A DNA stretch of 64,000 bases, from the UHGV virus genome UHGV-1376965, one strand, 5' to 3'. The translations under genes and the position numbers were made by a program. The notes under the pieces were generated by a model, which did not search any database, was not told where the DNA came from, and saw only the letters and a program-made list of their open reading frames with translations. The DNA comes from a virus. Shown piece after piece: positions 63,017 through 63,200 of this stretch (the stretch's first letter is position 1; each line of letters opens with the position of its first letter).

Positions 63017-63200
63017 ATGCTAATAGGCTATGTACGCATATAGACAAATGAACAAAACACAGCTATGCAGTGAAAAGCACTTGAAAGCGCAGGATGTGAG
63101 CTAATTTTTGCGAATAAGGCGAGCAGCAAAAAGGCTGGGCACCCTGGGTTAAAAAAGGTTCTGCGTATGCTTTCCAGAGGTGATACCCTAGTCTCGGGCT
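63017..63200 (+). pseudogene. decayed N-terminal fragment of a serine invertase (Cin/Gin/Hin family) gene
   Basis: Reads MLIGYVRI*TNEQNTAMQ*KALESAGCELIFANKASSKKAGHPGLKKVLRMLSRGDTLV, colinear with Cin N-terminus but with in-frame TAG (63041) and TGA (63071). Confidence 0.6.

Follow-up and report, generated by a model that had tools for sequence, protein, structure and literature searches.

A truncated P1-type cin stub beside a Min-type invertase gene in a P1-like plasmid-prophage

In the stretch of viral DNA analyzed here (UHGV virus genome UHGV-1376965, 64,000 nucleotides, hereafter the window), a decayed fragment of an invertase gene lies between lydC and an intact invertase gene that is read toward it. 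The explanation that fits our data best, and to which we give a probability of roughly 0.93, is that the fragment, a dead stub from the 5' end of a P1-type cin gene, stands in its original place and orientation beside lydC, was left behind by a Min-type replacement and has since drifted neutrally. The first-pass annotation had described a decayed invertase N-terminal pseudogene that is convergent with an intact invertase gene, and our analysis confirms this arrangement. The end of the window corresponds to the dar/lysis region of a P1-like plasmid-prophage, and its features are collected in Table 1. Beside the dar operon, a 402-aa ORF on the plus strand (57662-58870) resembles TnpB of the IS200/IS605 family; in ON470617.2, the closest phage record, its equivalent is annotated as an IS609 transposase.

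Table 1. Features from the dar/lysis region to the first crossover site, in window coordinates
Feature	Coordinates	Strand	Remarks
darA	59272-61191	-	
hdf	61193-61804	-	
lydB	61782-62225	-	
lydA	62222-62551	-	
lydC	62626..62889	-	Holin homologue; 87-aa ORF; annotated LydC in ON470617.2
cin upstream remnant	62890..63016	+	Equivalents of the predicted P2cin and P1cin promoters and of the RBS, all degraded (aligned to P1)
psi-cin stub	63017..63193	+	First 59 codons of P1-type cin, 177 bases; truncated after codon 59
Decayed equivalent of the cin recombinational enhancer	63035..63106	.	P1 cin nt 19-90; annotated in the P1 record at 31678-31749
Junction and 3' flank of the incoming invertase module	63194..63324	.	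Without similarity to P1 beyond 63193
Min-type serine DNA invertase	63325..63897	-	190 aa; Pfam Resolvase and HTH_7; called cin in the first-pass annotation
Enhancer-equivalent of the Min-type gene (its nt 19-90)	63808..63879	.	Placed by homology to the P1 enhancer
Core of the first crossover site (mix/cix-like), AAACGTTGGTTT	63959..63970	.	Just upstream of the intact invertase

The stub begins with an ATG at 63017-63019 and opens with the codons ATG CTA ATA GGC TAT GTA CGC ATA TAG. Its conceptual peptide is MLIGYVRI*TNEQNTAMQ*KALESAGCELIFANKASSKKAGHPGLKKVLRMLSRGDTLVS, in which the asterisks stand for a TAG at 63041-63043, in codon 9 (the codon of the catalytic serine), and a TGA at 63071-63073, in codon 19; the invertase N-terminus with two in-frame stops among its first 20 codons that had been noticed earlier is therefore real. 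When the stops are written as X, the peptide matches Pfam PF00239 (Resolvase N-terminal domain) with 37.5 bits and an E-value of 3.2e-9, against a curated cut-off of 23.3 bits, and covers only profile positions 2-68 of 145. HTH_7 is absent from the stub, while Pfam finds both Resolvase and HTH_7 in the neighboring gene. The match to P1 cin together with the Pfam Resolvase hit places the stub in the family of Din-type serine DNA invertases by homology. It has no open reading frame with a YxRVSTxxQ catalytic serine, as codon 9 is TAG and codon 19 TGA, and it lacks the complete catalytic domain and the C-terminal helix-turn-helix of a Din-family invertase gene. This homology is one of descent and not of function.

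At the DNA level, window positions 62928-63193 are 89.5% identical to P1 31570-31836 (E 3e-90), a match far beyond chance, and the concern that the similarity might be too weak or compositional can be set aside. In P1 this segment comprises the predicted P1cin and P2cin promoters, the RBS and the 5'-most 177 nt of cin, where the enhancer lies. A megablast search of 62880-63330 against phage genomes returned two full-length matches at >=99%, to the P1-like vB_EcoM-813R1 and vB_EcoM-673R5; the remaining matches covered 62928-63193 only, at 84-90%, and correspond to the cin genes of P1, P7, D6, SJ46 and RCS47, with the P1 match including ~90 nt upstream of cin. In local blastn comparisons with 85 loci, similarity to every intact-cin locus ends at 63193 or 63189, and in the P1-type loci it is collinear from 62644 to 63193, that is, from inside lydC into cin. 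The end at 63200 that had been given to the feature lies 7 bases too far to the right, and on its left the feature reaches ~90-125 bases into the former cin upstream region.

One question that such a fragment raises is from which gene it came. Over the first 180 nt the stub agrees with P1 cin at 158 positions (88%) and with the adjacent intact invertase gene at 119 (66%), and P1 cin itself agrees with the latter at 130 (72%). In P1 (NC_005856; cin at 31660-32220, enhancer at 31678-31749) an intact cin occupies the position of the stub, with the same lydC neighbor, and reads away from lydC toward cixL; lydC has the same position relative to cin as in the window, and the two genes start in opposite directions from a shared intergenic region. 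Homology of the stub to P1 cin spans the first 177 nt plus the region upstream, at 88-90%. Based on this ranking of identities and on the lydC-to-cin synteny with P1, the stub is the 5' end of the resident cin in its native place and orientation. Unlike P1 cin, it is truncated after codon 59, contains two nonsense codons, has lost the codon of Ser9, carries 10 changes in the enhancer and is followed by neither cixL nor a C segment. The first-pass annotation had taken it for an inverted partial copy of the 5' region of the adjacent gene, and both do encode Din-family N-termini in opposite orientation, with a best local alignment of 76.8% over 95 nt. Identity of this degree is ordinary between families, as the 72% between P1 cin and the neighbor illustrates, and the ~90 nt of non-coding upstream sequence that stub and P1 have in common are absent from the neighbor; together with the higher identity to P1 cin and the collinearity with P1 into lydC, this leaves a duplication next to no chance.

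The intact gene is not cin, as had been assumed, but a Min-type invertase. Its product has 74% amino acid identity to P1 Cin, and UniRef lists this exact sequence under Q05517_ECOLX. In pJIE250-3, a P1-like plasmid with the same reversed invertase, 98.5% amino acid identity to p15B Min was found (PMC6906374). The segment equivalent to the P1 enhancer within this gene retains the proximal Fis-like core TGTCAACAAATGACC, and by homology it would act as the enhancer of the system. Downstream of the gene a terminator-like hairpin for the minus strand lies at 63305-63319, and the flank from ~63200-63206 rightward is common to Min-type plasmids that carry different psi-cin sequences. In ON470617.2 the corresponding invertase (6446-7017) is split into two ORFs, Hin1 and Hin2, with 63325-63897 of the window being intact, and that record yielded a single crossover-like site.

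A stub of this kind is already known. In p15B (E. coli 15T-, X62121) a psi-cin likewise lies between lydC and min in the same orientation, and we compared the window with it through the coordinates and identities of four X62121 blocks that are quoted in the notes of the P1 RefSeq record. The lydB/lydA block (P1 30674-31240, p15B 7728-8294) is quoted at 99% and is 99.8% identical to P1 in the window; the lydC block (P1 31346-31499, p15B 7483-7638) is quoted at 84% and has 85.1% in the window, at 62700-62853; the block of the upstream region and the cin 5' end (P1 31570-31832, p15B 7147-7408) is quoted at 89% with one gap and gives 89.7% with one gap (262 versus 263 nt); and the invertase 5' block (P1 31684-31754, p15B 6463-6533) is quoted at 83%, where nt 25-95 of the window gene have 83.1% identity to P1 cin. 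For seven of the eight block ends, window and p15B coordinates add up to 70336, the sum at the remaining end being off by 2, and due to this constant sum the window is collinear with X62121 from lydB to min essentially to the base, with the stub corresponding to ~X62121 7143-7319. The order lydB-lydA-lydC-psi-cin-min, its spacing and the identities of p15B to P1 are all reproduced in the window, including the distance of 614 bp between the stub block and the min enhancer-like block. At the resolution of block coordinates and identities, which does not extend to single bases, no difference between p15B and the window was detected. We take the stub to be the psi-cin of p15B by name. Sandmeier et al., in their 1991 work on p15B, are said to have given this name to a truncated invertase 5' region next to min. 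The stub is thus present in the published p15B sequence, and the P1 reference record itself notes the p15B homologue, so that the fragment belongs to a feature already described, a finding that the first-pass annotation had named as refuting its reading. A full-text literature search returned nothing relevant on psi-cin or on an enhancer or pseudogene of p15B.

Only the first crossover site lies inside the window; its core can be compared with that of P1 cixL, AAACCTTGGTTT. Relatives that match the 1281 bp from lydC to the invertase at 95-100% have two to eight AAACGTTGGTTT cores after the invertase, in both orientations and ~440-520 bp apart (L012, L015, L052 and L067, in the first 3-5 kb past the invertase). 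p15B has six crossover sites, a number that some relatives exceed. In the RefSeq relative p321-pO111 a row of short tail-protein cassettes follows the invertase. Such multiple crossover sites in both orientations, together with the tail-protein cassettes, give the region beyond the neighboring gene the architecture that PMC6109161 describes for a Min-type multiple-inversion system. Through its relatives, the element therefore has the crossover sites and the tail-fibre C-terminal cassettes beyond min that mark the p15B type. The half-site distal to the invertase reads TTTAGGGGAA in the window and TTTGGGAGAA in one relative (L038), with the 1281 bp to its left being 100% identical, which suggests that the two are natural inversion isomers. 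The active system is best explained as the neighboring invertase with the enhancer segment inside its gene and the crossover sites on its right side. In ON470617.2, positions 9001-11433 contain at least 7 tandem copies of a ~300-bp unit in the constant part of the tail-fibre gene, a region annotated as several "tail protein (Fragment)" CDSs.

The convergent arrangement of stub and neighbor could also be seen as the relic of an aberrant Cin or Min inversion, in which a quasi-crossover site inside cin recombined with a genuine site and the rest of the gene was flipped, an origin that the earlier reading had put forward. Din invertases can use secondary sites, and the two genes are indeed convergent. 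Yet no cix/mix-like core with <=3 mismatches of 12 was found in 63140-63260, which covers ~50-70 nt around the junction. The neighbor is complete and has diverged from cin throughout, with identities of 72%, 70% and 59% along its length; a chimera of the 3' part of cin and a foreign 5' part was considered and rejected, as this identity declines uniformly. Neither an inverted copy of cin nt 178-561 elsewhere in the element nor a crossover half-site at the junction was found, and in a second lineage the same flank follows 307 nt of cin. The chance that the stub arose by such an inversion is very slim. The other origin that had been offered, the acquisition of a second invertase system, is in essence correct, in the form of a Min-type module that replaced the Cin module.

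The decay of the resident cin stub was compared with 47 intact cin alleles, which have 19 distinct 5' sequences. Thirteen stub bases occur in none of the 47 alleles, among them those that turn Ser9 from TCA into TAG and Arg19 from CGA into TGA. Their distribution over codon positions 1, 2 and 3 is 5:4:4, and 11 of the 13 alter an amino acid or make a stop. The enhancer segment holds eight of them, where 5.3 would be expected, so that it is not protected; a selective protection of this segment was examined and rejected, with stub-specific changes as many as or above expectation. Taken together, the codon spread, the large share of non-silent changes and the unprotected enhancer segment make the decay look neutral. 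The same holds for neighboring signals in that they too have changed: the -35 of the predicted P1cin promoter (TTTCCA) is kept and its -10 went from TAAAAT to TAAAAC, the predicted P2cin -10 from TATCAT to CAACAT, and the equivalent of the cin RBS from GAG to GGG. A sigma-70 consensus scan of 62850-64000 gave no promoter-like site, and an Rfam scan of 62600-64000 at E<=1 gave no match.

Relative to P1, the 72-nt enhancer segment has 10 differences, at nt 22, 26, 27, 45, 49, 51, 54, 55, 60 and 63. Those at the proximal Fis-like core are G22A, C26A and A27G, and the 15-mer TATCAACAAATGAAC (nt 23-37), a core that is kept in cin and in the neighboring invertase gene, is lost from the stub; the scoring of Fis sites used a rule-of-thumb consensus and is indicative only, as the Fis consensus is highly degenerate. 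The other seven are located in the segment that connects the Fis cores. Din enhancers have two Fis-binding cores at a fixed spacing with a sequence-sensitive connecting segment, the sequence of which matters for the activity of the Hin enhancer (PMC3798978). With ten substitutions in 72 nt, three of them in the proximal core, the proposal that the stub could still offer a second enhancer-like sequence is unlikely to hold. Sandmeier et al. reportedly found, also in 1991, that the psi-cin enhancer of p15B is inactive and that substituting two nucleotides activated it.

Could the relic nevertheless retain a role in cis? Residual Fis binding or an auxiliary enhancer, antisense transcription of the invertase gene from a weak promoter, or service as a homology arm by which P1-like phages could swap their Cin- and Min-type host-range cassettes would be forms of such a role. 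In two psi lineages that decay independently, nt 64-94, the distal third of the enhancer, have not changed, the stub is kept in all Min-type relatives seen, and the -35 of the predicted P1cin is intact. Against this, the enhancer segment has more stub-specific changes than expected, its proximal Fis-like core no longer exists, key bases are gone from the -10 hexamers, with no sigma-70 consensus site found, and the psi-cin enhancer of p15B was reportedly inactive in experiments. The nucleotide diversity of the stub (pi 0.0036) equals that of its neighbors, so its retention needs no selection. A role in cis is improbable in our view, and equally so in its two more specific versions, that the distal third (nt 64-94) might bind Fis and modulate multiple inversion, or that lydC-psi-cin might act as the left homology arm for an exchange of Cin- and Min-type cassettes. 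As a dead remnant of cin, the stub shows no sign of function; judged from its sequence it would make no protein, and most likely neither its promoters nor its enhancer act now.

The stub together with the junction and the Min-type gene is found in 147 of 457 matching PLSDB plasmids and in 171 of 5426 complete E. coli genomes. Among the E. coli matches that were sampled, the full-length ones all lie on plasmids of ~90-105 kb, and the chromosomal ones cover the invertase coding region only, at 88-90%. In an IMG/VR sample of 80 loci about two dozen have the stub, all with both stops, and most others have an intact cin; both stops were fixed in 21/21 stub-type sequences examined. Within the stub-type clade, pi is ~0.004 for the stub, 0.004 for lydC, ~0.004-0.008 for the spacer and 0.026 for the invertase gene. 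The stub is part of a young, conserved backbone, and because the clade is too young its polymorphism is uninformative on selection.

A second lineage, represented by the plasmids pEc-050-T0_3 (NZ_CP086513.1, L004 3003-3320) and pPEC399_3 (NZ_JBXSEY010000004.1, L005 2689-3015), carries a longer psi-cin. As in the window, a cin 5' remnant is convergent with the same Min-type invertase, and invertase and 3' flank are 94-96% identical from window 63206 onward. Their remnant comprises cin nt 1-307, is ~80% identical to intact cin, contains indels, is more decayed and is annotated by PGAP as an incomplete recombinase pseudogene. It belongs to another cin allele type (MLIGYIR..ND), ~80% identical to the window stub, and the plasmids have a different holin region without lydC and represent a more distant lineage. 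Both stub lineages have G22A (window 63038; Val8 to Ile), at the position that directly precedes the proximal Fis-like 15-mer. This change is absent from the 47 intact cin alleles; it can be either a trace of a common stub ancestry or a coincidence. The lineages differ in the length of cin retained (177 versus ~307 nt) and have nearly the same module border (~63200-63206).

Damage to cin is seen in other P1-like elements too. In E. fergusonii pHNCF11W-130kb (L003 3139-3380) cin has a TAA at codon 5 and breaks off near nt 230, beyond which lies a gene resembling an acetyltransferase. Another class of cin, which recurs, diverges after codon 43 ("AERPELKNAFER*"), and in one P1-like element the cin start codon is changed to TAG; the loci listed for cin inactivations are L013, L019, L034, L046, L049, L064, L074 and L077, together with L045. 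A further truncation of cin in P1-like plasmids has been reported (PMC6906374). The truncations and inactivations of cin in other P1-like plasmids are independent, repeated events.

A mechanism that fits these data is that the ancestor was a P1-like plasmid-prophage in which the host-range switch made of Cin and the C segment would have been replaced by a Min-type multiple-inversion module, whose invertase gene would have entered in the orientation opposite to cin. The replacement would have removed cin beyond codon 59, with one relative lineage keeping ~102 codons. Afterwards the stub would have drifted neutrally, acquiring the TAG at Ser9, the TGA at codon 19, the mutations in the -10 hexamers and the RBS, and the 10 substitutions in the enhancer. 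As to the order of events, the simplest history would be a single replacement, with truncation of cin near nt 310-325, and a later deletion of ~130-150 bp in the lineage of p15B and the window. Alternatively, two independent module insertions may have taken place.

By itself the stub is an ordinary, already known relic and matters little. What it changes is how the element is read, in that the annotation is corrected, with the intact gene being a Min-type invertase and not cin, and the host-range module is of the p15B type and not of the P1 type. The stub is a scar, dated in appearance, of an exchange of modules between P1-like plasmid-prophages, and ~3% of complete E. coli genomes carry it.
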